Shown: positions 1 through 18,444, numbered from the stretch's first letter. The stretch is 64,000 nt of DNA from an uncultured Spirochaetota bacterium (GCA_963734545.1 CAVTHO010000003.1:288001-352000), one strand, 5' to 3'. Program-made: numbers and translations. Notes: generated by a model not told the origin, from the sequence alone.

Positions 1-2
1 TG

Positions 3-302: not shown

Positions 303-427
303 CAGTTCCCCGCCGCGCGCAATCCTGGCCAGGAAATGATGCCGGGCGCAAGGCCGCCGCTTCATTGGGTTTTTGCGTCCGCGAGTGTATAGTTAATGGT
401 ATGCCGGTGTCCGGGGGAGAACGACGC

Positions 428-2665: not shown

Positions 2666-2707
2666 GGGTGATCAGCTGATGAACGCAGCTGCTGAAGGCA
2701 AAACGCC

Positions 2708-3439
2708 CTATCTTCTCTGCGCGGATATCTTGATGCTATAGCGATCGCTGCGGATGAATAATTCTGACAGAAGAACTGGAAGGCCTCGTTTATCGTGTAC
2801 GATCGTTCTGACATGCAAGAGGGGGTGGCCCTGGCGGCAGGAAAGGGTCTTGGCAAGCTGCGGAGTTGCCAGAATCGCCCTGACATCCTTCTCACCGTAG
2901 AGCAGGGCTATTCCGCTTGACTCCAGCTTGACGAACAGGGACTCGTTCTCGCCCAGCTCGGAAATCCGGGCCTGTTCGGCAATCGCCAGCGGCAGGAAAG
3001 TGTCGTCGCGCAGCAACACTTCATTGTCTACGTAGCGGATGCGTTGGAGGTGATGAATCGACGGCGCGGTCTGCTGAAGGTCCCGCGCCACATTGGGGAG
3101 ATCCACAACCTCGTTTGCCCTGACGACAGATCGGACCACCCGCCCTTGAGACTCCATTTCTTCGCTCAGCCCGGCGAGGTGCTCTTGATTACGGACGATC
3201 TGACGTTTGGCCGCAAAAGTACCTATCCCTCGCTCTTTGTACAACACGCGCTCGTCGGCGAGTTCGTCCAGGGCTTTGCGCAAGGTCATCCGGCTGACGC
3301 CGTAGAACGCTACAAGCTCGACCTCAGTTGGGATCTTTGCGCCGACCACCCACTCCCCGGAGTTGATCCTGGAAATAATGTCCTCTTTGATTTGGAAGTA
3401 CGCCGAAATGCCCTTCTTGAACGAAATACCAGATTTCAT
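2708..3439 (-). CDS. GntR-family transcriptional regulator (HutC/UTRA subfamily)
   Basis: wHTH IPTEVELVAFYGVSRMTLRKAL, RGIGTF, C-terminal UTRA-like domain. Confidence 0.92.
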   Translation of the reverse strand: MKSGISFKKGISAYFQIKEDIISRINSGEWVVGAKIPTEVELVAFYGVSRMTLRKALDELADERVLYKERGIGTFAAKRQIVRNQEHLAGLSEEMESQGRVVRSVVRANEVVDLPNVARDLQQTAPSIHHLQRIRYVDNEVLLRDDTFLPLAIAEQARISELGENESLFVKLESSGIALLYGEKDVRAILATPQLAKTLSCRQGHPLLHVRTIVHDKRGLPVLLSELFIRSDRYSIKISAQRR

Positions 3440-3466
3440 GGCAGGGTCCCCATATAGGCGAAAAGC

Positions 3467-4537
3467 TTATTCACCAGAGTCCGCACCTTGCAGTATCCCT
3501 GCTATATCGGCAGGCGTCGGCAGCGAAGGAATAACGCCTTCAATCTGCACTGCGTGCGCAGCGGCGGCTGAAGCGTAATCACCGATTGTCCGCAACTCAT
3601 TCGTGTCCAGCCGGGCGCCGCGGAGATTGGCTTTCAGAGAAATGGTTCTCGCCAGGAGGGCAGCCATATAGGCATCCCCGGCGCCTGTCGTGTCCACGAC
3701 ACGCTCTTCCGGCACTTTGGCGGCAGCGATGCGCTCATAAACAGTTCGCGAGCTGGCCAGAATTGAGCCCTTGCGCCCGTCGGTGAGTGCCAGGAGTCGC
3801 AGGTTGGGTGCATAGTCAAAAATCGCTTCCCAACGTGCGTTCTGAGCGCGGCTGTTGTGCAACACGAACTCCAATTCTCTCACATCAATCTTCAGTATGT
3901 CTACTAGTCGCAGTAGTCTGCGAATCTCCCATTGCGCTTCTGAGGAAGTCCGCCATAGACTTGCCCGAAGGTTGACATCGAAAGCGACTTGCACACCAGC
4001 GCGGCGCGCATAGTGCACCGCGGAAAAGCAGGTGGTTCGCAACGGCTTGGCCACGAGCGCCATCGAGCTCGTATAGAGGACGTGAGCGTTTCGGAGCGTG
4101 CGGAGAGGTACGTGCTGCCGGGCCAGGTAGGTGTTCGCGCAGGGGTGACGAAAGAACACATACTCAGGTACCCGCTGGGCATTCAGCGAGATGAACGCGA
4201 TCCCAGTTCGGCGTTTGGGATCTCGACTGACTGACGCCGTCCCGACGTTGAGAGTCTGCATGGTTTCCAGCAGAAAATCGCCAAAGGGATCGGTCCCTAG
4301 TCGTGTGACAATGCAGGCCGTCTTGCCGAGTCGCGACACTCCGGCGGCGACATTCCCTGCTGATCCTCCTGGGTACCGTCTGAACTGGATCGCTTCGGCA
4401 AGCCGCTGTTGCCCTGACGCAATGAAGTCGACCATCAATTCACCAAGGCACACCACATCGAACCGTTCGTTTCCTTCTGCAGGGATCCCGGTGACCTTTA
4501 CCCCAGACAGGGGAGCATCGGCCGTGTTGTTTCCCAT
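3467..4537 (-). CDS. PfkB-family carbohydrate kinase
   Basis: GGSAGNVA, FDVNLRASLW and DTTGAGDAY signatures. Confidence 0.92.
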   Translation of the reverse strand: MGNNTADAPLSGVKVTGIPAEGNERFDVVCLGELMVDFIASGQQRLAEAIQFRRYPGGSAGNVAAGVSRLGKTACIVTRLGTDPFGDFLLETMQTLNVGTASVSRDPKRRTGIAFISLNAQRVPEYVFFRHPCANTYLARQHVPLRTLRNAHVLYTSSMALVAKPLRTTCFSAVHYARRAGVQVAFDVNLRASLWRTSSEAQWEIRRLLRLVDILKIDVRELEFVLHNSRAQNARWEAIFDYAPNLRLLALTDGRKGSILASSRTVYERIAAAKVPEERVVDTTGAGDAYMAALLARTISLKANLRGARLDTNELRTIGDYASAAAAHAVQIEGVIPSLPTPADIAGILQGADSGE

Positions 4538-4587
4538 CCGCTTGTCTCCGCTCTGTTCACGATGATAGCCTTGCGTTCAACAGCCTC

Positions 4588-5289
4588 TTAGAAAAGATCC
4601 GCCCAATTCTCCCTGTTGTTGAAAGCAGCGGCGGTCTCTTCCAGGATCATATGCCCGGTCTTCATTACATAAACTCGATCCGATACTCGTAATGCCTGAG
4701 GTATGTTCTGCTCAACAAGCAATATGGCAGTTCCAAGGCTCTGCCGAATCTGAAGCAGGGTATCCATCAGCACCCCGACAAGGTGAGGCGATAGCCCCAA
4801 CGAGGGCTCATCCAGGAACAACAACTGTGGATTCGTGATCAGCGCCATTCCTATGCCCAACATGCGCCTCTCTCCCCCGCTCAGGGTCGAGGAATTCTGC
4901 CCCTGTCTCTCTTCCAATATTGGAAACACGCCATATATGTCCTTCAATCTGCTCGGAATATCAGCCACTCGCACGGTATAGGCCCCCAGCTCCAGATTCT
5001 CTCTGACGGTCAAACCCGGAAACGTGAATCTCTCCTGTGGTATGAAGCTGATCCCGTCTTTCACGTTGTCCCGCGGTGATCGCTGCGTGATGACCGTTCC
5101 GTTGAAGACCACGCTTCCTGAAAGCGGAGGCAGGATTCCGAAAACACTCGCCAGGGTTGTTGTCTTTCCCGCGCCGTTGTGTCCAAGAATGGAAACGATC
5201 TCGCCCTTGTCGATACCCAGGGACACACCATCAATCACGATTCGCTTCCCGTAGCCCGCCCGGAGGTCATTGACTTCCAACAACACCAT
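4588..5289 (-). CDS. livF: LIV-type ABC ATP-binding protein (LivF-like)
   Basis: GHNGAGKT, LSGGERRML, LFLDEPSLGL. Confidence 0.9.
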   Translation of the reverse strand: MVLLEVNDLRAGYGKRIVIDGVSLGIDKGEIVSILGHNGAGKTTTLASVFGILPPLSGSVVFNGTVITQRSPRDNVKDGISFIPQERFTFPGLTVRENLELGAYTVRVADIPSRLKDIYGVFPILEERQGQNSSTLSGGERRMLGIGMALITNPQLLFLDEPSLGLSPHLVGVLMDTLLQIRQSLGTAILLVEQNIPQALRVSDRVYVMKTGHMILEETAAAFNNRENWADLF

Positions 5290-5295
5290 CGTCTC

Positions 5296-7032
5296 CTATG
5301 TCGCTATCGCTTTCCTGCCAAAATACATCTCCACGAGCTCGTCATTTGACATGAGTTCCGACGGCGTACCCGAAGCTATGACGCGCCCTTGCGCCATGAA
5401 GTACGAGAAATCAGCCAGCTTGCTGACTATCTCCAGGTTGTGCTCAACGATGCAGATTGTCTTGCCGAAAGCCGCCAGGCGGCGAATGAGCGCCAGCTCC
5501 TTGTCGATTGCCGTCGGATCCGTTCCCGATGCCACTTCGTCCAGGAGAAGGATGTCCGCACCGGTAGCCAGCGCGCAGGCGAGCACCAGCATTTTGTGCT
5601 CGGCAAATGAGAGATTGGTGGCCAGTTCCCTGGCCTTGTCGCCAAGTCCGACAAAGTTGAGACTTGTCATCGCCCGCCGGATGCTTTTTCTGTCCTGCCG
5701 CGCCACTCTCCTGGGAAGGAAGAACAGAAATCGCAGCTTCTCGCCGTCCTGTTTAGGGCAGCCGAGCATGACGTTATCGAGTACGGACAGGTTCTTGAAG
5801 AAGCGAACCTCCTGAAATGTCCGGACGATCCCGAGGCGAGCCCTCGAAAATGGTGGTAGTTTCGTGATATCCAGGCCATAGAGATACACGCTGCCCGCAT
5901 CAGGCTTGATGAAGCCGGTAATGAGGTTGAAAACCGTGGTCTTGCCGGCGCCATTGGGACCGATCAGAGCAGTAATCCTGCCTTCCCTCAAGGCAAAGGA
6001 GGCATCGTTCACGGCCGTGACTCCGCCAAAATGCTTGCTCAGTCCCTTCACCTCAAGGGTCACATCCCCGTCGTGTCTGACTGAGTCATTCGTATGCCCG
6101 AGGATTTCTTCCTTGTAACTTTCTGATGACTCGAGTGAGGGGCTTGTGGTTCCGAATCCGCTATGCTCGGGCACCAGGCCCTGGGGCCTGAATCTCACGA
6201 ACAGAATCAACAGCAAACCATACATGCCGGCCTGGATCGTTCCTATTATCCCCTGACCTCCACTTGCGGATAATCGTATGAACCGAAGAGCTTCCGGCAA
6301 TGATATAAGAAGAAAGGCGCCAAGTATGGAACCCCACACGTTGGCAGATCCTCCGACAACCACCATGGCGACAATGAGAATCGATTGGTCGGCTGAGAAG
6401 CTCAAGGGACTGATGAACCTCGTGTAGACGGCAAACAGGTAGCCGCCAACCGCTGCCAGAGCGCCGCTCATGCCGAACACCAGAAGCTTGAATCGAGCGA
6501 TATTCTTCCCCAGGGCCACCGTTGCTAATTCATCCTCGCGTATGCCTTTGAGGACACGGCCGAAAGCCGAGTGCGTGGTCCGCCACACAACGAAGACACA
6601 GGGGATGAACAAGGCCAGTATCACGGGCAAGAACGATACGGGAGCAACGGGATGGTATCCGAAAAGGACGAAAGCGGGTATGCCAGAGAGCCCGCCTCCG
6701 CCTCCGGTGACACGTGACAACGTCACTATCAATCCGCTGACAAGATTCTGAATACCCAGCGTGAGAAGGATAACGAGGTCATTCTTGACTCGGAAAACAG
6801 GAAAGCTGACCAGGATACCGAACAGCCATGCGGAAGCAATGGCGATGAGAAGCACCAGGATAGAGCCGAGGCCGAGGTTGATCGCCAGGATTGCCGATAC
6901 ATATGCGCCGACGCCGAAAAAGGCCGCCTGGCTCATCGTAAGAACGCCGGTGTAGCCCTGGAGAAGATTGAGCGAAAGGGCCAGGATCGAGAAGATGAGA
7001 GCCAGATCTATTATATGGAATATGTAAGGCAT
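5296..7032 (-). CDS. Fused LIV-type permease/ATPase (LivM-LivG)
   Basis: N-terminal TM domain (LSLNLLQGYTG, RPQGL); C-terminal GPNGAGKT and LLLDE. Confidence 0.9.
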   Translation of the reverse strand: MPYIFHIIDLALIFSILALSLNLLQGYTGVLTMSQAAFFGVGAYVSAILAINLGLGSILVLLIAIASAWLFGILVSFPVFRVKNDLVILLTLGIQNLVSGLIVTLSRVTGGGGGLSGIPAFVLFGYHPVAPVSFLPVILALFIPCVFVVWRTTHSAFGRVLKGIREDELATVALGKNIARFKLLVFGMSGALAAVGGYLFAVYTRFISPLSFSADQSILIVAMVVVGGSANVWGSILGAFLLISLPEALRFIRLSASGGQGIIGTIQAGMYGLLLILFVRFRPQGLVPEHSGFGTTSPSLESSESYKEEILGHTNDSVRHDGDVTLEVKGLSKHFGGVTAVNDASFALREGRITALIGPNGAGKTTVFNLITGFIKPDAGSVYLYGLDITKLPPFSRARLGIVRTFQEVRFFKNLSVLDNVMLGCPKQDGEKLRFLFFLPRRVARQDRKSIRRAMTSLNFVGLGDKARELATNLSFAEHKMLVLACALATGADILLLDEVASGTDPTAIDKELALIRRLAAFGKTICIVEHNLEIVSKLADFSYFMAQGRVIASGTPSELMSNDELVEMYFGRKAIAT

Positions 7033-7059
7033 GCACTCTTCCTCTTGCTCCGGGTACTT

Positions 7060-7935
7060 CTATTTCCTGGGCTCGAAAATTCCCTGTGGCCTGACAAGCA
7101 CGATCAGGATGAGGATCGCGAACGTGATGACGATCTGCCATTGAGATGGTATGAAAACCAGGGGCACGTTTTGCGCAAGCCCAAGGAGGATGCCGCCCAC
7201 CACTGCGCCGGCGATGCTGCCGACTCCTCCCAGAAAGGTGACAATAATGCAGGAGAAGAATGGAGCCATGCCCATACTCGGAATAACGGCTCCCCCAAGA
7301 GAATAGAGAACTGCAGCGACAGCCGCCATTCCCGATCCCAAGCCGAAAGTCAGCAGGAACGTCCGGTTCTTGTTGATACCAATGATCTCGGACATTGTCG
7401 GGTTGCATGCAACAGCCCGCATTGTCTTGCCGGCCCCGCTCCGCGCCAGGTATATCTTGAGGGATAGAATAACGAGTCCGCTCAAGGCTATTTTGAGCGC
7501 CTGCGTGCTGTCAAATGCGATACCGCCGAAATTGAGGGACCTTGTCGTGAAGCCGCTGATTGTGCGATAGTTGGCACCGAACGCGAGCTGAATGAGGCTT
7601 TGCCCCAGGATCGCCGTTCCCATTGCCGATACAAAGATGCTGAATTGGGTGGCACCCAGCCGCCTGAGCGGAGAATAGATCCCACGCTCGATGAGGTATC
7701 CCACGGCGACTGCCGCCAGAATTGCCGCGAAGAAGCCTGCTGCGAGAGGAAGGCCCAGATTCGTTGTCGCGAACACGGCTGCGTATGCTGCAGACGTGAT
7801 AACGAGAATGTGCGCGAAATGGAATGTTCCCGTCGTGCTGTAGATGAGGCTCCAGCTCAGTCCGAAGAGAGCGTACAGCATTCCGCTTGAAAGCCCGTTC
7901 AACGCAAACTGCGCCAGCAGCATTGGCATCTGCAT
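7060..7935 (-). CDS. livH: LIV-type ABC permease (LivH-like)
   Basis: NGLSSGMLYAL, FHFAH, LGGVGS, RPQG. Confidence 0.88.
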   Translation of the reverse strand: MQMPMLLAQFALNGLSSGMLYALFGLSWSLIYSTTGTFHFAHILVITSAAYAAVFATTNLGLPLAAGFFAAILAAVAVGYLIERGIYSPLRRLGATQFSIFVSAMGTAILGQSLIQLAFGANYRTISGFTTRSLNFGGIAFDSTQALKIALSGLVILSLKIYLARSGAGKTMRAVACNPTMSEIIGINKNRTFLLTFGLGSGMAAVAAVLYSLGGAVIPSMGMAPFFSCIIVTFLGGVGSIAGAVVGGILLGLAQNVPLVFIPSQWQIVITFAILILIVLVRPQGIFEPRK

Positions 7936-8147
7936 TCGCTCCTTCTCAGGACTCCTTCACCAGCCACCGCGCCACCGCGATCGCCCCCACCTTATCAACA
8001 CGACGAGCGCCTGGCTACATGCACTTTCGTGATATTTTTGTCGTGTGCGCTTTAGAGCAATCATGTACAAGGCGGATGCCAGGTCCCGCACCCGATCTCA
8101 CAGACAGGTGCAGGATGACCGGCGAACCCAGCCAGCCTTCATGCCTC

Positions 8148-8181
8148 CCCTGCTGCCTGCAATGCACTGCTGGCAGCAGGG
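8148..8181 (-). terminator. Stem-loop downstream of the SBP gene (mRNA stabiliser or partial terminator)
   Basis: CCCTGCTGCCTGCA...TGCTGGCAGCAGGG inverted repeat with one mismatch; no strong U-tract. Confidence 0.5.
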
Positions 8182-8235
8182 CGAAGCTCTCATCATGTTC
8201 TTGTTCGACTTTCTACAAGCTGTGCACCATCGACT

Positions 8236-9390
8236 CTATTCGCTGCCCAGGAACACCCGTGCACTGTTCTGCCACTTGGAAAGCGCAATCGGCTTGGAGC
8301 ACGAGCCATCGTCGTTCAACGTGACTGTCGGGCCGAAAAGCGAGGGGAATGTCCGTATCTTCATGAGCGCATTTTCGAGCTGGGTCCCGTCAAAGGGATT
8401 TCCACTATTCTTCAGAACAAAGGCAACTGTATCACGCAGGATGTACATCAATTCGTAGTAGTTTGCGGAATAGTACTCCGCCTCCTCGCCATACTTCGCC
8501 TTGTACGCCGCCGCGAACTTCTTCGCCCAGTCATTCGCGGGTGCAAAGTAGTCTTCGGCCCAGATATAGCCCTCAAGCGTATCTCCGGCTATCTTGACGG
8601 ATCCCGGGTTCAGCTGGGTACCCCCGATGGGCACCGTAATCCCCATCTCTCGAGCCTGTCTGATGATGTACCCCTGGTCGGTTTCATAGGCAAAGATGAC
8701 CAGGGCATCCGGCTTGGCGGCCATTGCCTTCGAGATATATGAGCGGAAATCGGTGGTAACTGCGACCGGGTCGTACATCTCCTTGTCCACGATCGTCATC
8801 CCCAGCTGCGCAGCCAATGACTCGGTTGTGGACATCTCGCCCTTGCCTTCATTGTTGCCGCGATAGATGACCGATATCTTCTTGATTCCGGGCTGCTTGC
8901 CAAGATACTTGATCAAAGTAGGGCTGAGGCTCAGGCTCCGCGTGTTGTGCAGTCCCTTGACGTTGAGGAGATCCAGAGCGGCACCACCGCCGTTCATCAG
9001 GACAACATGGTTCTCCCAGGCGACCGGTGCAACGGTCAAGGTGATATTAGGCCACGAGCTATTGATCCAGGGGACCTGGTCCAGGGAAATCAGCTTCCGG
9101 GCGCCGTTGAGTCCCGCTGTCGCGTCTCCACTCTTCATGTCCTCGACGACGAGGGTCAATTTGAACGGTAAAGCGCCTGAGGCGTTGATCTCATCCAGCG
9201 CCAGCTGCTGACCTTGAGTCATGACTTTCCCGTAAAATGCCCCATCACCCGTCACTGCCATCAGCGCGCCGATTTTCATCTCTTTGGGAAGAGATGTCGT
9301 GGATTTCTCGGCACTCGGACCAGCAAAGCCGAAGGTTGCCACCACCACCAACACCAACAGAGCGATGAACCATCTCTTTCTCCCGTACAT
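8236..9390 (-). CDS. LIV-type ABC substrate-binding protein
   Basis: SD TAAGGAGG before ATG 9390; signal peptide MYGRKRWFIALL; KIGALMAVTG, LALDEINASG, DFRSYISK. Confidence 0.9.
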   Translation of the reverse strand: MYGRKRWFIALLVLVVVATFGFAGPSAEKSTTSLPKEMKIGALMAVTGDGAFYGKVMTQGQQLALDEINASGALPFKLTLVVEDMKSGDATAGLNGARKLISLDQVPWINSSWPNITLTVAPVAWENHVVLMNGGGAALDLLNVKGLHNTRSLSLSPTLIKYLGKQPGIKKISVIYRGNNEGKGEMSTTESLAAQLGMTIVDKEMYDPVAVTTDFRSYISKAMAAKPDALVIFAYETDQGYIIRQAREMGITVPIGGTQLNPGSVKIAGDTLEGYIWAEDYFAPANDWAKKFAAAYKAKYGEEAEYYSANYYELMYILRDTVAFVLKNSGNPFDGTQLENALMKIRTFPSLFGPTVTLNDDGSCSKPIALSKWQNSARVFLGSE

Positions 9391-9636
9391 TTCATGTACC
9401 TCCTTATAGAGATCTTTTGACCGGGCTTTCAGCGCGTGAGTACAGTTTCGGGGCGACTTCCTGCACGAGTTCACAACCGCCGGCTGCGTCGTTCGGGTTG
9501 GCCTCTGCCCCCTCTGGAGGGCCGGGTTCCGCGGGTCCCGGCAGGGAGGCTCGTCGGGTTCCTGCTCTGCAGCCGATGACTCCAGTTCGAACTGCCCCAC
9601 GCACCTCCTGACCGTCTACCTGTATAGACGTATGCT

Positions 9637-9665
9637 ATTCTACACGACTGTCCCCTCAGTGTCAA
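9637..9665 (-). promoter_or_regulatory. Sigma70 promoter for the ABC/kinase/GntR operon
   Basis: TTGACA-17 bp-TAGAAT on the minus strand. Confidence 0.75.
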
Positions 9666-9754
9666 GGCAGAAGTCGCGGGGATAACGGGAGGCATCGATG
9701 CGATGCCTCCAGGATCATGGAATCCGCATTGAAGAGGTCGCCTCGGCACATAAC

Positions 9755-9783
9755 TTGACAGCATGAATCCAGAGGTCTAATAT
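9755..9783 (+). promoter_or_regulatory. Sigma70 promoter for the E2 catalytic-domain gene
   Basis: TTGACA-17 bp-TAATAT. Confidence 0.72.
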
Positions 9784-9786
9784 GAG

Positions 9787-9802
9787 GTATGGACATCTAT
9801 AC
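9787..9802. promoter_or_regulatory. Putative GntR/HutC-type operator
   Basis: GTATGGACATCTATAC, an imperfect palindrome over the expected TSS; related motifs at 10613-10628 and 9621-9630. Confidence 0.6.
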
Positions 9803-9883
9803 ATTCTGTTTGCGGTGATTCTGTGAACTTCGAGCGCCAATTTGGCCATATCCATGGGTCTCTTGGAGAAAGGGAAGGACCAC

Positions 9884-10558
9884 GTGACGGAGAAAAGGAT
9901 CAAGCTGAGGGGCGTGCAGCGTCGTGTGGCCGAGCAGGTCGCGAAGAGCGCGTTTACGATCCCTCACGTGACAACGATTCGCGAAGTCAGGATGCAAAAG
10001 GTCGACGAGGTCAGGAGAAACCTTGCCGGCCAGTTCGGGAAGCTCACGACAATGCCTTTCATCATCAAGGCAGTCGTGTCGTCGATACAGCAGCAACCCG
10101 TGCTCAACGCGAGTCTTGACGGTGACGACATCGTTCTGCATGACTCGGTCAACATTGGAATTGCAGTCACGGTAGGGAATGACCTCTTTGTGCCGGTCAT
10201 GAGGGAAGTCCAGTCCATGGCTTTTCGAAATGTCGTGGAGAGCCTGGACGACCTCGTCGACAGGACGAGGTCACGAAAGCTGCAACTGGAAGATCTTCGC
10301 AATGCGACTTTCACGATCACCAACTCGGGCGCGTTGGGCGGCGAAATCTTCACGCCAATCATAAGTGTTCCGCAATCGGCGATCCTTGGTATCGGCCGAA
10401 TACAGAACAAGCCCGTGGTGGACTCAAACAATGCCATCGTCGTCTGCCCAATGATGTATCTGTGTCTCTCCTATGACCACCGAATAATCAATGGGAGTGA
10501 CGCCGTGCGTTTTCTCGACGCAATTGACAGGTGGCTCCAGGACCCGGTGCCGGACTAG
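9884..10558 (+). CDS. Stand-alone 2-oxoacid dehydrogenase E2 acyltransferase catalytic domain
   Basis: IPHVT, TFTITNSG, FTPII, LSYDHRIING; no lipoyl or subunit-binding domain; GTG start after GGGAAGGA. Confidence 0.88.
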   Translation: MTEKRIKLRGVQRRVAEQVAKSAFTIPHVTTIREVRMQKVDEVRRNLAGQFGKLTTMPFIIKAVVSSIQQQPVLNASLDGDDIVLHDSVNIGIAVTVGNDLFVPVMREVQSMAFRNVVESLDDLVDRTRSRKLQLEDLRNATFTITNSGALGGEIFTPIISVPQSAILGIGRIQNKPVVDSNNAIVVCPMMYLCLSYDHRIINGSDAVRFLDAIDRWLQDPVPD

Positions 10559-10580
10559 AGATCTCTCTCCGATGTTGTCC

Positions 10581-10608
10581 TTGACAATGCTTATGGGGCT
10601 GGTACAAT
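10581..10608 (+). promoter_or_regulatory. Sigma70 promoter for the E1/CoA-transferase operon
   Basis: TTGACA-16 bp-TACAAT with extended -10 TGn. Confidence 0.72.
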
Positions 10609-10612
10609 ATAC

Positions 10613-10628
10613 GTATCGATGACTATAC
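10613..10628. promoter_or_regulatory. Putative GntR/HutC-type operator
   Basis: GTATCGATGACTATAC; shares GTATnGAnnnCTATAC with 9787-9802. Confidence 0.6.
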
Positions 10629-10674
10629 AATCTCCATCTCCTCCAAGTGTTTCAAGGTGCGGAGGATCGGCACA

Positions 10675-11634
10675 ATGCTTCTAGACACAAACGCATTGCT
10701 GGATCTCTACTATTATCTTTTCCTGACGCGGAGCTTTGAGAACTCGCTTGTCGAGATGTTTGCTGATAAGTCCTTGCCCGAAAAGCCAATGACGAGCATA
10801 GGCCAGGAAGCGACAGCCGTCGGCGCCACGTTTTGCCTCCGCAAGGATGACTATGTGCTCCCTGCGTTGAGAACGCGCGGTGCCTTCTTCACCAAGGGCA
10901 TCACTGCTACAGAATACCTGCTCGAAGTACTTCGGAAGGGCACAAGCATATCAGGCGGGAGATGGACTGCGCACCACCTGGGCGACATTACTCGTGGGAT
11001 CATTCTCGGGAGTGCCGTTGTCAGCAGCTCTTTGCCAGTGGCGGCAGGCACGGCCCTGTCAGCAAAGATCCGCGGCACCGATCAGGTCACGCTTGCTTTT
11101 TTTGGCGACGGCGGAAGCAGCACCGGAGAAGTCCATTCCGCCATGAATTTTGCCGCGGTTCTGAACCTCCCGGTCGTGTTCGTCTGCGAGAACAATCGCT
11201 ATTCCCTTTCCACGCCGATAGCACTTCAAACCCGCAATGAAGACATTGCGGATCGTGCGTTCGGCTATGGGATGGAAGGAGACATCGTGGACGGCCAGGA
11301 TGTCATCGAGGTGGTTCATTCTGTCTCGAGGGCAGTCCAGCGCGCACGGCGTGGAAGCGGGCCTTCTCTGGTCGAATGCAAGACATATCACTTTCGAGGT
11401 CATTCCGAAAGCCACCATCCAGACGACGGAAGACCAGTTGAGGAGCTTGCCAGGTGGCGTGCGCGAGATCCGGTACAACTGTTCGAGGCATACCTGAAGA
11501 ATAATGGATTCTCGGATCGTCAGCTCGAATCCATCCGATCTCGGGTAGCTTCCGAGATCCAGACCGCCCGAGAGGTCGCCGCCGCCGCGCCGGAGCCTGC
11601 GACGGACGCCGTCCTCTGGAACGCGTATGCCTGA
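10675..11634 (+). CDS. TPP-dependent dehydrogenase E1 alpha subunit
   Basis: IGQEA, TPP motif GDGG...ENN, VDGQD, FRGHS. Confidence 0.92.
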   Translation: MLLDTNALLDLYYYLFLTRSFENSLVEMFADKSLPEKPMTSIGQEATAVGATFCLRKDDYVLPALRTRGAFFTKGITATEYLLEVLRKGTSISGGRWTAHHLGDITRGIILGSAVVSSSLPVAAGTALSAKIRGTDQVTLAFFGDGGSSTGEVHSAMNFAAVLNLPVVFVCENNRYSLSTPIALQTRNEDIADRAFGYGMEGDIVDGQDVIEVVHSVSRAVQRARRGSGPSLVECKTYHFRGHSESHHPDDGRPVEELARWRARDPVQLFEAYLKNNGFSDRQLESIRSRVASEIQTAREVAAAAPEPATDAVLWNAYA

Positions 11635-11671
11635 GATCGGCCAGCCAACCGGCGATTGAGGAGTATGCACA

Positions 11672-12673
11672 ATGGTAACAACTGTGTCCGGTGCATTGAG
11701 GGAGGCACTCAAGAAGGCCTTGCGCGATGACAACACAGTCTTTCTCATGGGTGAGGACATCGCGGAATACGGGGGCATATACAGGGTCACGCGAGGTCTG
11801 AGCGACGAATTCGGCCGTGATCGAGTCATTGATACGCCGATGGCGGAGATCAGCATCGTTGGCGCAGGCATCGGGGCGGCAGTCACCGGTCTGCGACCGG
11901 TGGTGGAGATAATGTATGCCGACTTTCTGCCAATCACGATGGATCAAATAGTAAACAACGCCGCCAAGTTCTACTTCCTGTCCGGCGGCAAGACACCGGT
12001 CCCGTTGGTCGTTCGGTGCAACTTCGGCGCCGGGAAGGCGGAGGGGGCGCTCCAGAGTCAGACTCCCGAAGCATGGTTCCTCAATTTCCCTGGCGTCAAA
12101 GTGGTGATGCCCTCCAACCCGCAAGACGCCTATGGATTGCTGCTGAGCAGCATCTACGACAACAATCCCGTTTTGTTCTGCGAGCACAAGATGCTCTATG
12201 CTTTGCGCGGCGAACTCGACGTGAGTCAGCCGCTGCCTCCCATTGGCTCGGCGTCTGTCAGCAGAAAGGGCGAAGAGATCACAATCGTTTCCTGCGGACA
12301 CATGCTTCACAAATGCCTCGACGCGGCAGCCCAGCTCTCCAAGGACGGCATTTCCGCGGAGGTGATTGACGTACGTACATTGAAACCTCTCGATGAGTCG
12401 ACGGTCTGCGAATCGGTCCGAAAGACCGGTCGTCTCCTCGTTGCAGAAGAGAACCCCAGGACCGGCGGCTGGGGACTGCAAGTCCTTGAATCGGTGGTCA
12501 CGAATTGCTTCTCGGAGATGAAGGAACCACCCCGACGGATCTCTGCGATGGACGTGCCGCTTCCCGCAGCGAAGAATCTCGAAGAGTTTGCCGTGCCGAC
12601 GGTGGGCAGCATTGTCAGCGCAGTCCGGCACGTGCTTGTGCCCGGCAAGAAGCTGCAGAGGAGCCACTCGTGA
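11672..12673 (+). CDS. TPP-dependent dehydrogenase E1 beta subunit
   Basis: GEDI, DTPMAE, RPVVEIMYADF, DVRTLKPLD, SVRKTGR. Confidence 0.92.
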   Translation: MVTTVSGALREALKKALRDDNTVFLMGEDIAEYGGIYRVTRGLSDEFGRDRVIDTPMAEISIVGAGIGAAVTGLRPVVEIMYADFLPITMDQIVNNAAKFYFLSGGKTPVPLVVRCNFGAGKAEGALQSQTPEAWFLNFPGVKVVMPSNPQDAYGLLLSSIYDNNPVLFCEHKMLYALRGELDVSQPLPPIGSASVSRKGEEITIVSCGHMLHKCLDAAAQLSKDGISAEVIDVRTLKPLDESTVCESVRKTGRLLVAEENPRTGGWGLQVLESVVTNCFSEMKEPPRRISAMDVPLPAAKNLEEFAVPTVGSIVSAVRHVLVPGKKLQRSHS

Positions 12674-12912
12674 AAGAGAAAGCAGTAGTCATCCCGCGGG
12701 TCGACGATGTGCCCGAGGTCGAGATATCCAAATGGTATGTTCACGAAGGCGACCGGATAACACCTGATGCATTGCTCGCTGAATTGCTAGCCGACAAAGC
12801 AGCCGTGGAGCTTCGGTCCGAGGATTCCGGCAAAGTCGTGCGGGTCCTGAAGGCGGAGGGCGAGGTGGTCAAAGTCGGGGACACTGTCCTCATCATCGAG
12901 TGCGATGAATAA
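12670..12912 (+). CDS. Stand-alone lipoyl carrier domain protein (80 aa)
   Basis: WYVHEGD, ADKAAVE (lipoyl Lys), GEVVKVG; GTGA overlap with the E1 beta stop. Confidence 0.88.
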   Translation: MKEKAVVIPRVDDVPEVEISKWYVHEGDRITPDALLAELLADKAAVELRSEDSGKVVRVLKAEGEVVKVGDTVLIIECDE

Positions 12913-12947
12913 CGTCCTGATCCAGCACATTTAAGGAGGATATTGCA

Positions 12948-14138
12948 ATGCGTGGCTCACTGGAAGGAATCAGGGTGCTGGACCTGTCGCGCGTAATTTC
13001 CGGACCCCATTGCTGCATGATACTGGGGGACCTGGGAGCTGAGGTCATAAAGGTGGAAAAACCCCACACGGGGGATATGTCCCGGCAGAATTATCCGAAG
13101 GTCAACGATGAAAGCACCTACTTCATGGCGTACAACCGGAACAAGAGGAGCATCACGCTGGATTTCCGACATCCGGACGCGAAGGCGCTCTTCCTGAAAC
13201 TGCTGAAAAAAGCCGATGTTGTCGTGGAGAATTTCCGCGCAGGGACGATGGAAGAGATGAAACTTGGGTATGACGAACTGAGCAAGGTCAACCCCGGAAT
13301 CATTCTCACCAGGATATCAGGATTCGGCCAGGATGGACCGAGTTCGCACCGGACATGCTTTGACCCGGTGGCACAGGCGATCAGCGGGTTGATGGATGTG
13401 ACGGGACCCGAGGACGGTCCGCCCATCGTGCTTGGAACGTATGTCGTCGATTGTGCGAGCGCCCTGTACGCGGTGATCGGCACGCTGGCAGCACTCCACG
13501 CGCGCGAAAAAACCGGCAGGGGACAAGTGGTCGATGTGGCGCTGCTCGATACCGCTGTTTCGCTTCTGCACACCGCGATACCGGACTATCAACTCCTGGG
13601 TCAGAAGCTGACGAGAATCGGCAACAACGACCGCTATGCCTGGCCGGCCAATATCTACCAGGCCAGCAACGGGCGCTGGGTCTACATCCATGCGGGCATG
13701 GACAACACCTTCTCCGCGTTGATGAAGATCATGGGGAGGGAAGAGCTGCGGGAAGACGAAAGGTACAAAACGCGCAAAGCCCGGGAGGCCAACAAGCGGG
13801 CGTGTGATGATCTCGTCCAGTCATGGGTTTCTACGCTGCCCGCTGAAGAGGTGGTCGAGGTCGTGTCCCAGGCGGGCATCCCGTGCGCCCGGATCAACGA
13901 TGTGACCGAAATGATCGTGGACCCGCAGGTAAATCACCGGGGCATGGTGGCAAAGGTCGATCATCCGAAGGTGGGCGAGCTGCATCTCACCGGTCCGGTT
14001 GTGCACTTCTCAGATACAAAAGCGAGCATACGCAGCGCTCCGCCGCTGCTGGGCGAGCACAACAAAGATGTCTATGGCGAACTGCTGGGCCTGACGGAGA
14101 AGGAAATTGCTTCCCTGTCGGCAGACGGCCTGATATAG
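12948..14138 (+). CDS. CaiB/BaiF (family III) CoA-transferase
   Basis: LEGIRVLDLS, GAEVIKVE, NRNKRSITLD, ENFRAG, ISGFGQDGP, PPLLGEH. Confidence 0.93.
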   Translation: MRGSLEGIRVLDLSRVISGPHCCMILGDLGAEVIKVEKPHTGDMSRQNYPKVNDESTYFMAYNRNKRSITLDFRHPDAKALFLKLLKKADVVVENFRAGTMEEMKLGYDELSKVNPGIILTRISGFGQDGPSSHRTCFDPVAQAISGLMDVTGPEDGPPIVLGTYVVDCASALYAVIGTLAALHAREKTGRGQVVDVALLDTAVSLLHTAIPDYQLLGQKLTRIGNNDRYAWPANIYQASNGRWVYIHAGMDNTFSALMKIMGREELREDERYKTRKAREANKRACDDLVQSWVSTLPAEEVVEVVSQAGIPCARINDVTEMIVDPQVNHRGMVAKVDHPKVGELHLTGPVVHFSDTKASIRSAPPLLGEHNKDVYGELLGLTEKEIASLSADGLI

Positions 14139-14174
14139 CCGCAATTTGTATTGACGGCAGGAGGGGTAGATCAG

Positions 14175-15062
14175 ATGAAGAGTAAGCTTACAGACTTGAG
14201 CACGGCAGCACGAAAGGTACCCTCCGGAAGCAGTATCGCCATTGGAGGAAGCATCATTCGCCGGCAGCCGACGGCCTTCGCGCGCGAGCTGATTCGAAAC
14301 GGAATCAAGAACCTGACGATCTATGGTTATCCATGCGGATTGGCAACCGATATGCTTGCCGGCGTCGGGGCAGTGAAACGCATCGAGGCGGTATACACCG
14401 GACTTTTCGAATACGGCATGGCCTACAATATCCGCCGCGGCGTCGAGTCGGGCGCCATAGAAATGATTGATTTTCCCGAGGTTGCGCAATGTGCACGGTT
14501 TCAGGCCGCGGAGATGGGACTCCCTTTCCTGCCGACGAGGACGCTCAAAGCGACCGGGATGGCGCACTATAACCCGGAGCAGATCAAAGAGATCACCTGT
14601 CCGTTCACGGGTGAAAAGATGCATGCGGTGCCTGCAATCAATGCGGATTTCACGGTGCTGCACGGGTACTCCGGAGACGAATACGGAAATGTCCAGTGGC
14701 CGGAGCATCGTGACGCCGACGACCTCGACCCCCTGATGGCCAAGGCCGCCCGGAGGCTCATCGTGACAGTGGAAAAGATCGTTCCGCACTCGGAAATCAT
14801 CAAGATACCAAACAGCACATACATACCGCACCACTGGGTGGAAGCCATCGTCGAGGTTCCCTTCGGCGCTCATCCAGCCCAATGTGATGCGTTCTACGAC
14901 GAGGATGAAACTCACCTGGAGTACTACCAGGAGTGTGCCAGGGACCCTCAAAGGTGGGTCGCTGAGTACGCGCAGAAGTACATCTATGGAGTGAAAAGTC
15001 ACGAGGAATACCTGAACCTGGCAGTATCGCCGTATCGGCTCGCCAAGCTCATTGTACGATAG
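14175..15062 (+). CDS. Family I CoA-transferase-fold alpha subunit (GctA-like)
   Basis: GGSIIRRQP, AAEMGLPFLP, CPFTGE, DEYGNV, PFGAHP. Confidence 0.85.
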   Translation: MKSKLTDLSTAARKVPSGSSIAIGGSIIRRQPTAFARELIRNGIKNLTIYGYPCGLATDMLAGVGAVKRIEAVYTGLFEYGMAYNIRRGVESGAIEMIDFPEVAQCARFQAAEMGLPFLPTRTLKATGMAHYNPEQIKEITCPFTGEKMHAVPAINADFTVLHGYSGDEYGNVQWPEHRDADDLDPLMAKAARRLIVTVEKIVPHSEIIKIPNSTYIPHHWVEAIVEVPFGAHPAQCDAFYDEDETHLEYYQECARDPQRWVAEYAQKYIYGVKSHEEYLNLAVSPYRLAKLIVR

Positions 15063-15074
15063 AAGGAGTTCATC

Positions 15075-15884
15075 ATGCCGGATGTTGGCGATTACACGGT
15101 GAACGAATTGATGGTGGCCGCCACTTCTCGCGAACTGCGGGATGGCGAGCTGGGTTTCATCGGGGTCGGAACGGCGGGGCGGGCGTATACGCTGGCAGTG
15201 GGGATTCCCATGGCCGCAGCCCGTCTTGCGCAGTGCACACATGCACCCGACTTCACCATTTTCTGGAACAACCTTCTGAGCCCGGACCTGGGTCAGATCC
15301 CACCGAAACTGACCCAGAACTATCTCACGAGGTGGCCGACAGCATATCAACCGGTATGTTCGGCGGACAAGAACGGCATGCTGGCTCGGGGCGAGTTCGA
15401 TGTCTCATTCGATTCTGCTCCACAGATAGACAAGTTCGGGAACCTGAACATCACCGCGATCGGCGATTACAGGAAGCCCAAGGTGAGGCTGGTCGGCTGC
15501 CTCGCGCAGACAGACCATTTCTCGTTCATCAAGCGTCCCATCATCATCACCGATTTGAAGAAGCGCGCCTTCGTCGAGAAGGTCGATTTCATCACCAGTG
15601 TCGGGTATCTGAGCGGAGGCGACAGCCGTGTACAAGCCGGCCTGTTGCCGTACGGACCGTGGAAGGTGATCACCGAAAGATGCATCTTCAACTTCCATGA
15701 GGTGCAGAAGGTCATGCAGATTGAATCCCTGCATCCCGGCGTCACGCTGGAAGAGGTTCTGGACAATATGAGCTTCACGCCGCTCATTCCCGAGAATATT
15801 CCAGTAACGGACGCGCCGACAGACGCGGAGGTGAAGCTCATTCGAGAAGTCATAGATCCGAACAGGATCCTCTTGAGGGCCTGA
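15075..15884 (+). CDS. Family I CoA-transferase-fold beta subunit (GctB-like), canonical Glu not evident
   Basis: QIDKFGNLN, FVEKVDFITS, SLHPGV, IDP terminus; expected ESG region reads IFWNN. Confidence 0.82.
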   Translation: MPDVGDYTVNELMVAATSRELRDGELGFIGVGTAGRAYTLAVGIPMAAARLAQCTHAPDFTIFWNNLLSPDLGQIPPKLTQNYLTRWPTAYQPVCSADKNGMLARGEFDVSFDSAPQIDKFGNLNITAIGDYRKPKVRLVGCLAQTDHFSFIKRPIIITDLKKRAFVEKVDFITSVGYLSGGDSRVQAGLLPYGPWKVITERCIFNFHEVQKVMQIESLHPGVTLEEVLDNMSFTPLIPENIPVTDAPTDAEVKLIREVIDPNRILLRA

Positions 15885-15899
15885 CAAGGAGCGCACCGA

Positions 15900-16838
15900 A
15901 TGATTATTGATACTCACTATCACTATGACGATTGGCCAAAGGACCCGGAGTCACAAAAAAGAAAGGCGTTGGGGTGGCTGTACGATGCCGAACGGTGTGG
16001 AGTGAAGAAGCCGTTGGACGAGGCCATGCCTTTCTATGCGGAGAACGTGGATGATCCCGACTGTCACAAGCTTATCAAGCGAATGGATGATTGTGGAATC
16101 AACCTGACCGTGCTGCTGATGCTGGACAACATCGATGAGGGCTTGGATGACGAGGCTGTTGTTTCCTGCAATGAAAAATGTGCCCGGGCGGCGGCCAGGT
16201 ATCCGGGCCGCCTTATTGCCATGGCGGGAATTGACCCCCGGCGCAGGGATGCGCCATCGCTATTTCGTCATTGCGTCGAGAAACTGCACATGAGCGGGCT
16301 GAAATGGCATCCAGATGTGGGCTATTACCCCAATAGCAGGGAAGCATATGCTGTTCTGGAAGTAGCAAACGAATTGGGGCTGCCGCTTGTCATCCATACG
16401 GGACCTCTTTCGGGTTCAAAAGCCAAGTATTCACATCCAATCCACCTTGATGAAATAGCCCTGGATTTCCCAAATATAAATATCGTGGCCGCACATTCGG
16501 GCGATATCTTCTGGCATGATTGGGCAGCGGTCGCGCACTACAAAAAGAACATCTATGGGGATCTCGCCATGTGGCAGCTGAGAGCTGAAAGCAAGCCTCA
16601 TCTCTTTCGCCGATATTTGAGAGAAATGCTGGATATCGTCGGGCCCGAACAAATCCTCTTCTGTACTGATGGAGTGGCATTTGACCTTCATGTGCCAGTT
16701 CAGAGATGGATAAACATAGTCAAGTCTCTGCCGGAAGATGTGCAGGATGGAATACGGTTCACCCAAAGTGAAATTGATGCGATTTTATGGCGAAATGCTC
16801 TAAAAGCCTTTCATCTGGAAAGACTTGTGCAATCATAG
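15900..16838 (+). CDS. Amidohydrolase_2-family metal-dependent hydrolase or decarboxylase
   Basis: IIDTHYH, GLKWHP, IHTG, AAHSG, LFCTD. Confidence 0.88.
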   Translation: MIIDTHYHYDDWPKDPESQKRKALGWLYDAERCGVKKPLDEAMPFYAENVDDPDCHKLIKRMDDCGINLTVLLMLDNIDEGLDDEAVVSCNEKCARAAARYPGRLIAMAGIDPRRRDAPSLFRHCVEKLHMSGLKWHPDVGYYPNSREAYAVLEVANELGLPLVIHTGPLSGSKAKYSHPIHLDEIALDFPNINIVAAHSGDIFWHDWAAVAHYKKNIYGDLAMWQLRAESKPHLFRRYLREMLDIVGPEQILFCTDGVAFDLHVPVQRWINIVKSLPEDVQDGIRFTQSEIDAILWRNALKAFHLERLVQS

Positions 16839-16893
16839 AGGAGTATGCTGCGCCCCGCGAAGTCGCACGATCGTCTCAAGAGGAATCAGGAGT

Positions 16894-16978
16894 TGCTGCG
16901 GACTGGACTTGAACCAGCACACCCTTTCGGGCACTAGCCCCTCAAGCTAGCGTGTCTACCAAATTCCACCACCGCAGC
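16894..16978 (-). tRNA. tRNA-Leu(GAG)
   Basis: GCTGCGG acceptor stem, D-loop GGAATTTGGTAGAC, anticodon loop TT-GAG-GG, long variable arm, GGTTCAAGTCC; CCA not encoded. Confidence 0.95.
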
Positions 16979-16989
16979 GAGAATGGCGA

Positions 16990-17018
16990 ACTATAGCCAT
17001 TCCCGGAACGCGTGTCAA
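16990..17018 (-). promoter_or_regulatory. Sigma70 promoter of the tRNA
   Basis: TTGACA-17 bp-TATAGT, 11 nt upstream of the tRNA. Confidence 0.78.
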
Positions 17019-17149
17019 TATTCGGTGCCGCCGGACACGTCCCGACCGTGTATCGGCATGCCCGCGCCCGGGCGCGAACACCCGTCCCCCGGGTACCCGC
17101 GCCGGATTCTCACCTTCCCGCGTGTCGTTTTCCTCCTTATATTGGGCCT

Positions 17150-18379: not shown

Positions 18380-18444
18380 AGCCTTGCCATCGAATCACCT
18401 CCCCGGTAGAGTAGCGCCATACTGGGGCAGAAAGGTGATCGATC

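Follow-up and report, generated by a model that had tools for sequence, protein, structure and literature searches.

In glutaconate CoA-transferase (GctAB), Glu54 of the beta subunit carries CoA as an enzyme-CoA thioester, and in IpdB Gly is found at that position (PMC5380842). IpdAB acts on a CoA thioester made by another enzyme and opens the ring of a cyclohex-1-ene-1-carboxyl-CoA (PMC5380842). In AibB, the former Glu position is occupied by Cys, and the route to which AibAB belongs leads from hydroxymethylglutaryl-CoA (HMG-CoA) via methylglutaconyl-CoA to dimethylacrylyl-CoA (PMC7756340). Here, we describe another protein pair of this fold, CtA and CtB (CtAB). It is encoded in a divergently transcribed island at positions 2708-16893 of a 64,000-nt stretch of DNA (the window) from an uncultured Spirochaetota bacterium (GCA_963734545.1, CAVTHO010000003.1:288001-352000). 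ORF (open reading frame) listing and Pfam scans yielded the same 14 ORFs, with the same families and coordinates, as an initial annotation of the window. The genes of CtAB are accompanied by those of a family III CoA-transferase (CaiB), a thiamine pyrophosphate (TPP)-dependent enzyme with alpha and beta subunits (E1ab), a free lipoyl carrier, an E2 acyltransferase and an Amidohydro_2 protein. The opposite arm encodes a PfkB kinase, a Liv-type transporter and a GntR regulator (Table 1).

We propose that the island encodes one acquired, CoA-ester-dependent pathway that converts a polyhydroxy carboxylic acid into succinyl-CoA and a phosphorylated fragment, and we assign this reading a probability of about 0.4. 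It is built on the gene families, a lost nucleophile in CtB, a split E2, co-clustering in other genomes and gene contexts of the succinyl type.

CoA enzymes, TPP/lipoyl module and their distribution

The nearest solved relatives of CtA are GctA (E = 3e-36), AibA (4e-29) and IpdA (1e-26). Judging from its homologues, the real start of CtA is probably the ATG at 14175. In the HMMER alignment, W64 of CtB stands at the position of the Glu in the ESG motif of GctB. W64 and N66 are both conserved without exception in 121 of 121 sequences, i.e. the window protein and the best 120 of about 2,770 homologues (E <= 1e-10). The beta subunit of a second pair from Proteobacteria (CtB') is likewise devoid of the catalytic Glu. 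Since the catalytic beta-Glu is replaced by an invariant Trp, CtAB is predicted not to be a CoA-transferase but to resemble IpdAB and AibAB, the lyase/hydrolase members of the fold. E110 of CtA is invariant in 16 aligned CtA and CtA' sequences and aligns with the Glu of the 'MDEG' stretch of IpdA. Protein-atlas clusters for CtA carry only the generic name 'CoA transferase subunit A'.

CaiB has human succinate-hydroxymethylglutarate CoA-transferase (SUGCT) as its nearest solved relative (E = 1e-79). The Asp in its 'VVDCAS' stretch aligns with the Asp in 'MTDLAT' of SUGCT, which we take to be the catalytic Asp. Among the three CoA-transferase-fold proteins, CaiB is by its sequence the sole true CoA-transferase, and CtA and CtB most likely transform the thioester that CaiB makes.

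The TPP/lipoyl module deviates from the usual 2-oxoacid dehydrogenases in its E2, which consists of the catalytic domain only. As a stop codon lies directly upstream of the E2 ORF, no lipoyl or peripheral-subunit-binding domain can be attached to it. Its best NCBIfam match is sucB (218 bits at a cut-off of 379). E1 alpha has an intact TPP motif GDG-X26-NN (GDGGSS...CENN) and an intact GHS loop (RGHSESH). Short E2 forms of 220-231 aa were also found in L004, L005, L029, L030 and L043, and separate small lipoyl ORFs of 79-82 aa in L004 (82 aa), L030 (79 aa) and L043. Since six of the seven short E2 forms examined carry DHRIING or DHRIVNG, with Asn for the Asp of DHRxxDG and with His and Arg kept, the Asp-to-Asn change appears to be a family trait and not decay. 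The split E1/E2/lipoyl arrangement is a conserved form of the complex; E1ab, a free lipoyl carrier and a catalytic-only E2 were encountered as a set in five places besides the island.

Gene contexts point to the product of this module. SucC and SucD follow the genes of the complex or of CtAB in L004 and L030, and SucC was found in L005 by ORF homology to L004 only. In L043, methylmalonyl-CoA mutase and a MeaB-epimerase fusion precede E1 alpha. L002, L003, L006 and L007 carry an iron-dependent alcohol dehydrogenase (Fe-ADH), a butyryl/4-hydroxybutyrate-type CoA-transferase and an AbfD-like dehydratase. Fe-ADH, 4-hydroxybutyrate CoA-transferase and AbfD constitute the classical route from succinic semialdehyde to crotonyl-CoA. 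Because of these three contexts, and because E2 is nearest to sucB and CaiB to SUGCT, the product of the TPP module appears to be narrowed to succinyl-CoA or a succinyl unit, a point not made in the initial annotation. Three of the four loci of the 4-hydroxybutyrate type (L002, L006 and L007) have E1ab without E2, and the fourth, L003, has no E1. The whole Agathobaculum genome contains no E2 homologue, so its E1ab must act non-oxidatively. The TPP enzyme thus appears to hold a succinyl unit, which leaves as succinic semialdehyde where E2 is missing and as succinyl-CoA where E2 and the lipoyl carrier are present.

A scan for CtA in one genome per prokaryotic species yielded 16 loci: one in a Spirochaetales metagenome-assembled genome (MAG), six in Clostridia, three in Microvirga and six in Enterobacterales. 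For the gene counts per locus, the 14 island proteins served as tblastn queries (E <= 1e-10, coverage of 60% or more), and the ORFs were clustered all against all. CaiB, CtA and CtB were present in 16 of the 16 loci found with CtA. Within 10 kb, the eight non-proteobacterial cases (window and L001-L007) have both E1 subunits in six cases and PfkB in seven. Outside the window, E1 alpha and E1 beta were found in L002, L004, L005, L006 and L007, the catalytic E2 in L004 and L005, and PfkB in L002-L007 (34-37% identity). The Spirochaetales MAG (L001) encodes CaiB and CtAB proteins 85-94% identical to those of the island. On another contig of the same genome (L043) it has E1 alpha (75% identity, compared to 51-52% in L004, L005 and L030), E1 beta (69%), the lipoyl carrier (49%), PfkB (52%), E2 (56%), a MaoC hydratase and a GntR regulator (71%) that follows PfkB.

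All nine proteobacterial loci encode CaiB, CtAB, an acetolactate-synthase-like (ALS-like) TPP enzyme (NCBIfam subfamily PRK06112, 920 bits), DhaK, DhaL and LacI regulators, and eight of them additionally the second pair CtA'/CtB'. The six enterobacterial loci also have an MFS transporter and MaoC, and the Microvirga loci TRAP and sugar-ABC genes, Fe-ADH, GFO, SDR and a split MaoC; the PLSDB record of the Microvirga plasmid contains no annotated features. In Proteobacteria, the ALS-like TPP enzyme and DhaKL seem to replace E1ab and PfkB with the pathway logic kept, which would be a non-orthologous replacement. In most loci, CaiB-CtAB is accompanied by a TPP enzyme (E1ab or ALS-like) and a hydroxy-carbonyl kinase (PfkB or DhaKL). 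At E <= 1e-60, CtA was found in one of 399 scored Clostridia genomes, which was the centre genome itself. CtA is rare, and therefore its repeated company is not due to chance.

Co-clustering across phyla, which the initial annotation had set beforehand as a test of its model, was found, so that the model was not refuted on this point. Its view that kinase, TPP enzyme and CoA chemistry belong together agrees with the related loci. The idea that all 14 genes form one system stands in so far as modules recur together, but the 14 genes are not conserved as a unit: none of the related loci was found to have the Liv-type transporter or the Amidohydro_2 gene, the latter unique to the window's island, and GntR recurs in L043 only. 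The island is a mosaic of three portable modules and not a fixed 14-gene unit.

The AlphaFold2 model of the Amidohydro_2 protein (pLDDT 95.4) has the LigJ hydratase as its top Foldseek match, followed by non-oxidative decarboxylases and LigY (TM 0.6-0.7, 15-19% identity). HxH, H166, H199 and D257 are invariant in 27 homologues. The model places the protein in the LigJ/LigW/LigY branch, which comprises hydratases, decarboxylases and C-C hydrolases, and not among the amide hydrolases; it is probably a hydratase. At other loci, a MaoC hydratase is found in its place. MaoC of L043 is 39-44% identical to MaoC of the six enterobacterial loci, and a search of the window's genome revealed no homologue of MaoC. 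The Amidohydro_2 protein may be an unrelated hydratase that stands in for MaoC.

Some further observations were made at the related loci. In L003 (8253-9998), from a Lachnospiraceae MAG, ~120 positions at the start of the profile are missing from CaiB, which shares its reading frame with an ABC permease domain, and E1ab is missing from the locus; the fusion looks like a deletion or an assembly chimera. L043:13859-15250 encodes a MeaB GTPase fused to a glyoxalase-type (methylmalonyl-CoA epimerase-like) domain, directly between the mutase and E1 alpha. In gut or metagenome Clostridia, glycyl-radical enzymes (L030:1739-5013, L004:19228-20880; with an activase in L030) and GFO-type dehydrogenases share operons with the split E1/E2. 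A fructosamine-kinase-family gene (1e-76) is located at L007:18568-19473, a few genes downstream of the Lachnospiraceae cluster. Beside the Pantoea cluster, L012:4544-5437 encodes a sulfolactaldehyde 3-reductase equivalog (480 bits, cut-off 348), next to a DeoR gene. Both are probably part of a sulfoquinovose operon next to the cluster that has nothing to do with the island pathway.

Proposed pathway, substrate and rival explanations

In the proposed pathway, the Liv-type ABC system would import the acid, and the GntR/UTRA regulator would sense an intermediate. CaiB would put CoA on the acid, with either succinyl-CoA or the product thioester as donor. CtAB might then act as a lyase or hydrolase on this thioester, breaking a C-C bond or opening a ring as IpdAB and AibAB do. 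The LigJ-like Amidohydro_2 protein would add or remove water, as MaoC would in other hosts, and PfkB would phosphorylate an open-chain keto intermediate at a primary hydroxyl. E1ab, the free lipoyl carrier and the catalytic-only E2 could take a succinyl unit from an intermediate of the 2-oxo or alpha-hydroxy-keto kind and release it as succinyl-CoA. This would in turn re-prime CaiB, and an E3 of the host would re-oxidise the lipoyl carrier. From the observations above we infer the order of the steps, the C-C cleavage by CtAB and the substrate.

The leading, still doubtful, candidate for this substrate is a hydroaromatic acid with seven carbons, of the type of shikimate or quinate. Genes of the shikimate dehydrogenase family lie in or beside six of the 16 loci (L004, L005, L007 and L010; just outside L008 and L009). 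They were called by Pfam in L004 and L010, by homology to L004 in L005 and L007, and by tblastn only for two Microvirga genes. Transporters at the related loci are of the carboxylate type (TRAP, and MFS nearest to yhjE); the enterobacterial MFS proteins matched E. coli yhjE only, with 66-70% over 16-28% of the length, which gives no clue to the substrate. The balance shikimate + H2O = succinic semialdehyde + glyceraldehyde or dihydroxyacetone is redox-neutral. Neither the enterobacterial cluster nor the window island encodes a dehydrogenase, and this fits a redox-neutral core. Shikimoyl-CoA would be a cyclohex-1-ene-1-carboxyl-CoA, as is the substrate of IpdAB.

Just as tentatively, CaiB, CtAB, hydratase, kinase and TPP enzyme may together constitute a CoA-dependent pathway by which shikimate, quinate and similar hydroaromatic plant acids are degraded without aromatisation. 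The acid would be activated to a cyclohexene-carboxyl-CoA, whose ring would be opened by CtAB as a third catalytic type of the glutaconate-CoA-transferase fold, with the invariant Trp-x-Asn. The TPP enzyme would split the resulting C7 chain into a succinyl unit and triose phosphate, and the split E2/lipoyl system would make this step oxidative in some hosts. Older physiological work reported that fermenting anaerobes use quinate and shikimate without aromatic intermediates. If true, the hydroaromatic pathway would explain this capability.

A number of points weigh against the proposed pathway and its substrate. The GntR/HutC, DeoR and LacI regulators and the sugar-type ABC systems (L004, Microvirga) fit a sugar, a sugar acid or a cyclitol at least equally well. 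The shikimate dehydrogenase family also includes a 5-ketofructose reductase, ten of the 16 loci have no gene of this family, and the window island contains neither such a gene nor GFO or MaoC. No route that is chemically complete could be drawn from shikimate to a TPP substrate able to release succinyl; hydration of shikimate followed by retro-aldol cleavage leads to an aldose-type chain and not to the 4-oxo acid that the TPP step needs. The Glu of IpdA that aligns with E110 of CtA is presumably the catalytic Glu105. In L030, the E1/E2 module is found in the absence of CaiB-CtAB, so that each can function on its own. Furthermore, E1 beta passes the pyruvate dehydrogenase (PDH) subfamily model of NCBIfam (339.6 vs 321 bits), and a heterotetrameric E1ab is not the usual type for 2-oxoglutarate. 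Finally, there is no E3 in the island, and the best E3-like match in the window's genome (C8:82038-83413) attains 368 bits at a cut-off of 408.8 and is read in three pieces. These cover family positions 2-71, 74-117 and 108-461, which suggests frameshifts or assembly errors, and an E2-like gene is located just upstream. E3 is encoded within the L030 operon. The window's genome has two genes of the lipoate/biotin-ligase family.

The strongest competitor, less probable than the proposed pathway, regards the TPP/lipoyl complex as an ordinary 2-oxoglutarate (or pyruvate) dehydrogenase that merely oxidises an end product and supplies succinyl-CoA or acetyl-CoA as CoA donor as well as energy. CaiB, CtAB, the hydratase and the kinase would then turn a sugar acid or a ring-opened cyclitol product into 2-oxoglutarate and triose phosphate. 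The affinity of E2 to sucB and the PDH-type score of E1 beta agree with this, and SucCD, methylmalonyl-CoA mutase and the 4-hydroxybutyrate route are normal fates of succinyl units derived from 2-oxoglutarate. L043 and L030 carry enolase-superfamily dehydratase, GFO, SDR, FGGY, PTS and HAD genes typical of the catabolism of sugars and sugar acids, the regulators are of the sugar type, and ALS-like 2-oxoglutarate decarboxylases exist in cyanobacteria. However, no known sugar-acid route to 2-oxoglutarate requires CoA esters or an enzyme of the GctAB fold. In addition, all nine proteobacterial loci have a dedicated TPP enzyme although Proteobacteria already own a 2-oxoglutarate dehydrogenase. The products, C5 plus phosphorylated C3, would also imply that the substrate is C8 and is oxidised, but no dehydrogenase is encoded in the enterobacterial cluster.

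We consider it unlikely that the island encodes a dicarboxylate route similar to that of AibAB. CaiB would form the mono-CoA ester of a 3-hydroxy-dicarboxylate (hydroxymethylglutarate-, citrate- or hydroxyglutarate-like), a (de)hydratase would convert it into a glutaconyl-type enoyl-CoA, and CtAB would decarboxylate the latter. The relationship of CaiB to SUGCT is in favour of such a route, as is AibAB decarboxylase as second-nearest solved relative of CtA, and dicarboxylates are the cargo of TRAP and MHS-type transporters. As a set, CoA-transferase, (de)hydratase and GctAB-fold enzyme also have their counterpart in the route from HMG-CoA to dimethylacrylyl-CoA (PMC7756340). The sugar-type kinase and the transporter would have to serve another purpose. 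Yet the kinase is present in seven of the eight non-proteobacterial loci (in the eighth case on another contig) and in all nine proteobacterial ones and would be left without a role. Moreover, CtB has Trp and not the Cys of AibB, and several loci contain genes for sugar-type binding proteins, GFO, SDH-like proteins and SDR.

Very little speaks for the model of the initial annotation, in which a sugar- or cyclitol-acyl conjugate is hydrolysed by the amidohydrolase, phosphorylated and cleaved by the TPP enzyme to an acyl-CoA, and three CoA-transferases recycle CoA. Kinase and TPP enzyme are indeed found together with CoA enzymes, an amino-acid-like conjugate could suit the Liv-type binding protein, and in L007 the fructosamine-kinase-family gene is near the cluster. 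But CtAB has no transferase nucleophile, the Amidohydro_2 protein belongs to the hydratase/decarboxylase branch and is confined to the window island, and the Liv-type transporter is not conserved with the enzymes. Of the undescribed catabolic system postulated in this model, the CoA/TPP system that co-clusters across phyla is retained. In contrast, CoA recycling by three transferases proved wrong for CtA and CtB because of the invariant Trp at the catalytic Glu position of CtB, and nothing shows hydrolysis of an amide or ester by a protein that is structurally nearest to a hydratase and replaced by the MaoC hydratase elsewhere.

Least probable of all is that a transporter-kinase unit, a PDH-like complex and a CoA-transferase unit were brought together without joint function in a variable region by the tRNA: the tRNA-Leu hot spot, the separate occurrence of modules (only CaiB-CtAB in L001, only E1/E2 in L030) and the varying gene order are in line with it, but in spite of the rarity of CtA the combination appears again in Spirochaetota and Clostridia and, built from analogous enzymes, in two classes of Proteobacteria, the GC content of the island is uniform, and operon-like spacing and one divergent control region unite both arms.

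For the proteobacterial version, breakdown of ascorbate via oxalate/erythrulose was considered and dropped: the TPP enzyme is ALS-like and does not group with oxalyl-CoA decarboxylase, and E1ab enzymes do not act on CoA esters.

Gene content and origin of the island

The genes of both arms are compiled in Table 1. Within each arm, intergenic distances range from a 4-bp overlap to 98 bp, with the exception of 300 bp before the binding-protein gene, i.e. the spacing is operon-like. Rfam detected no riboswitch or other RNA apart from tRNA in window positions 1-20000.

Table 1. Features of the island and its border in the window
Feature	Position	Strand	Evidence and remarks
GntR/HutC-type regulator with UTRA effector domain	2708-3439	-	Pfam GntR 2e-17, UTRA 9e-22
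PfkB-family sugar or keto-acid kinase	3467-4537	-	Pfam PfkB 5e-51; GAGD motif
ABC ATPase, LivF/UrtE type	4588-5289	-	ABC_tran 2e-30; NCBIfam matches all below cut-off
Fused LivM-type permease and LivG-type ATPase, 578-aa ORF	5296-7032	-	BPD_transp_2 residues 4-247, ABC_tran 342-500
LivH-type permease	7060-7935	-	BPD_transp_2 1e-29
Periplasmic binding protein Peripla_BP_6 with signal peptide	8236-9390	-	Pfam 7e-44
Divergent intergenic control region	9391-9841		separates minus and plus arms; no Rfam family match
E2 acyltransferase, catalytic domain only, 238 aa, motif DHRIING	9842-10558	+	2-oxoacid_dh 1e-72, profile 3-227 of 232
E1 alpha, TPP-binding subunit	10657-11634	+	E1_dh 2e-65
E1 beta	11672-12673	+	Transket_pyr and Transketolase_C; passes NCBIfam PDH E1-beta subfamily model
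Stand-alone lipoyl carrier, 80 aa	12670-12912	+	Biotin_lipoyl 1e-13; DKA lysine motif; GTGA overlap with E1 beta stop
CaiB, family III CoA-transferase (CaiB/Frc/SUGCT type)	12948-14138	+	CoA_transf_3 1e-129, profile positions 1-366 of 366
CtA, alpha subunit of GctAB-fold protein	14151-15062	+	CoA_trans (PF01144) 8e-24
CtB, beta subunit without catalytic Glu	15075-15884	+	CoA_trans (PF01144) 5e-13
Amidohydro_2 metal-dependent TIM-barrel enzyme	15900-16838	+	Pfam 2e-26
tRNA-Leu(GAG)	16894-16978	-	ARAGORN; Rfam 50.8 bits; outside pathway

The island has an even GC content of 0.559 along its whole length, compared to 0.624 on its left (1-2707) and 0.643 on its right (16894-64000). It ends at 16893, the base preceding tRNA-Leu(GAG), and thus abuts the 3' end of the tRNA. 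The window's genome (5.14 Mb, 10 contigs, 89% complete) has a single copy of CtA. None of 20 genomes of the same genus and none of four other genomes searched from the family contained a CtA homologue; two of 16 genomes of the same order did, with merely 36-39% identity. The island is horizontally acquired.

The tRNA-Leu(GAG) and the genes to its right are kept in 19 of 20 congeners, and the 3' side of the tRNA is variable in the genus: six congener stretches from this side, one of 893 bases and one of 5.4 kb, had no match to the left flank of the window or to the island. Congener G006 contains a 57-nt partial copy of tRNA-Leu 6.2 kb from the full gene, and multiple 58-nt partial copies comprising the 3' part of the tRNA were found in several genomes, for instance several in G014. 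Because of these recurring copies, the site is an integration hot spot. The partial copies look like attachment (att) remnants of integrative elements. A repeat search revealed neither a copy of the tRNA 3' end at the left border of the island nor an integrase-like feature, so no att pair was found. Left of the island, positions 365-2665 (plus strand) encode a 766-aa predicted secreted or lipoprotein-like protein with 3-4 repeats of ~70 aa of the 'TYTVTY(D/N)GNG..GG..P.D' type and, after them, leucine-rich-like repeats; in congeners, it shows no synteny with the tRNA. Island DNA is present in sequencing runs of wetland metagenomes, possibly including the source sample; among the runs listed with island DNA, none was of RNA.

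None of the island genes reaches an NCBIfam equivalog cut-off. In agreement with the initial annotation, the set matches no equivalog of PDH, 2-oxoglutarate dehydrogenase (OGDH), acetoin, iol, frl or CoA-transferase systems, and the E1-beta subfamily model mentioned above is the sole cut-off passed. E1 alpha scores 251 bits with the PDH model (cut-off 411) and E2 36 bits with that of acetoin E2 (cut-off 307). PfkB matches best to IolC (184 bits, cut-off 300) and fructokinase (178 bits, cut-off 450). Its FrlD score is 40.6 at a cut-off of 247, and there is no SIS-domain gene in the island, so that the FrlD-FrlB pair of the frl system was not found. Literature searches directed at such a pathway, mostly seen as titles and abstract openings, revealed no described pathway with this gene set or around relatives of the GctAB-fold enzymes.

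The binding protein probably starts at the ATG at 9390 and not at the GTG at 9600, because this ATG is preceded by a good ribosome-binding site (AAGGAGG, 8 nt upstream). The solved relatives of the protein (best E = 1e-19) are too distant to indicate its ligand.

Significance and comparison with known systems

If the reading holds, the glutaconate-CoA-transferase fold gains a large (about 2,770 homologues, E <= 1e-10) and very conserved subfamily that is incapable of the transferase role. Current genome annotation labels the CtAB-type family '3-oxoadipate/glutaconate CoA-transferase'. Furthermore, a conserved split E2 of 2-oxoacid dehydrogenases would be defined, in which a free lipoyl carrier is combined with a catalytic-only core (DHRIING). 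A portable route would connect a plant-derived acid with Clostridia of the gut, Proteobacteria associated with legumes and plants, and spirochaetes from wetlands; the host would decide whether succinate, propionate or butyrate is formed at the end. As culturable carriers exist (Pantoea, Erwinia, Microvirga, Agathobaculum), the pathway is directly testable. The system is not solved, but it offers a good starting point for experiments.

Among the described systems, GctAB (PDB 1POI) is the closest solved relative of both CtA and CtB (3e-36 and 4e-28), and subunit sizes and gene order are equal. In contrast to GctAB, CtB lacks Glu54, and the island has no genes for 2-hydroxyglutaryl-CoA dehydratase and glutaconyl-CoA decarboxylase. 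IpdAB, the COCHEA-CoA hydrolase of steroid ring C/D catabolism (PDB 6CO6, 6CON), shares with CtAB the two-subunit glutaconate-CoA-transferase fold without the beta-Glu. However, it matches CtAB weakly (E = 1e-26 and 1e-16), and Gly in IpdB corresponds to Trp in CtB. The steroid genes EchA20, FadA6, IpdC and IpdF are missing from the island, whose CtAB has a family III transferase, a kinase and a TPP enzyme as partners. Crotonase, thiolase and TetR families are not represented among the 14 genes, so that the steroid context (EchA20, IpdC, IpdF, FadA6, KstR2) is not found. AibA/AibB (PDB 5MZW-5N03), the decarboxylase of 3-methylglutaconyl-CoA, has the same fold, has also lost the Glu and, according to PMC7756340, acts after a (de)hydratase on a dicarboxyl-CoA. 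Here, the differences are the Cys of AibB in place of the Trp of CtB, a match that is confined to the first 170 residues of CtB (E = 2e-10), and the origin of AibAB from a myxobacterial biosynthetic operon as opposed to a catabolic island. The AibAB partners HMG-CoA synthase and LiuC are not encoded in the island.

CaiB resembles the SUGCT/Frc/CaiB family in its full-length CoA_transf_3 domain with the aligned Asp and is closest to succinyl-CoA-dependent dicarboxylate transferases, but it stays below all NCBIfam equivalog cut-offs (303 vs 700, 298 vs 442 and 276 vs 750 bits). The myo-inositol (iol) pathway also combines a PfkB kinase, IolC, acting on a keto-acid with a -CO-CH2OH end, with a TPP enzyme, IolD, and GFO-type dehydrogenases, and IolC is the best NCBIfam match of the island kinase. 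By contrast, this match is below the cut-off (184 vs 300), the island contains no IolG, IolE, IolD, IolB, IolJ or IolA, and the iol pathway proceeds without CoA esters before malonate semialdehyde. With PDH, OGDH, branched-chain 2-oxoacid dehydrogenase (BCKDH) and AcoABCL, the module shares a heterotetramer-type E1ab whose TPP motifs are intact, a carrier with lipoyl-lysine and an E2 catalytic domain that has the DHR histidine. It differs from them in that the catalytic part of E2 and the 80-aa lipoyl carrier are separate proteins with no peripheral-subunit-binding domain, that DHRIING replaces DHRxxDG, that E3 is absent from the island, and that no equivalog cut-off is passed. The gene contexts of the module indicate a succinyl and not an acetyl product.

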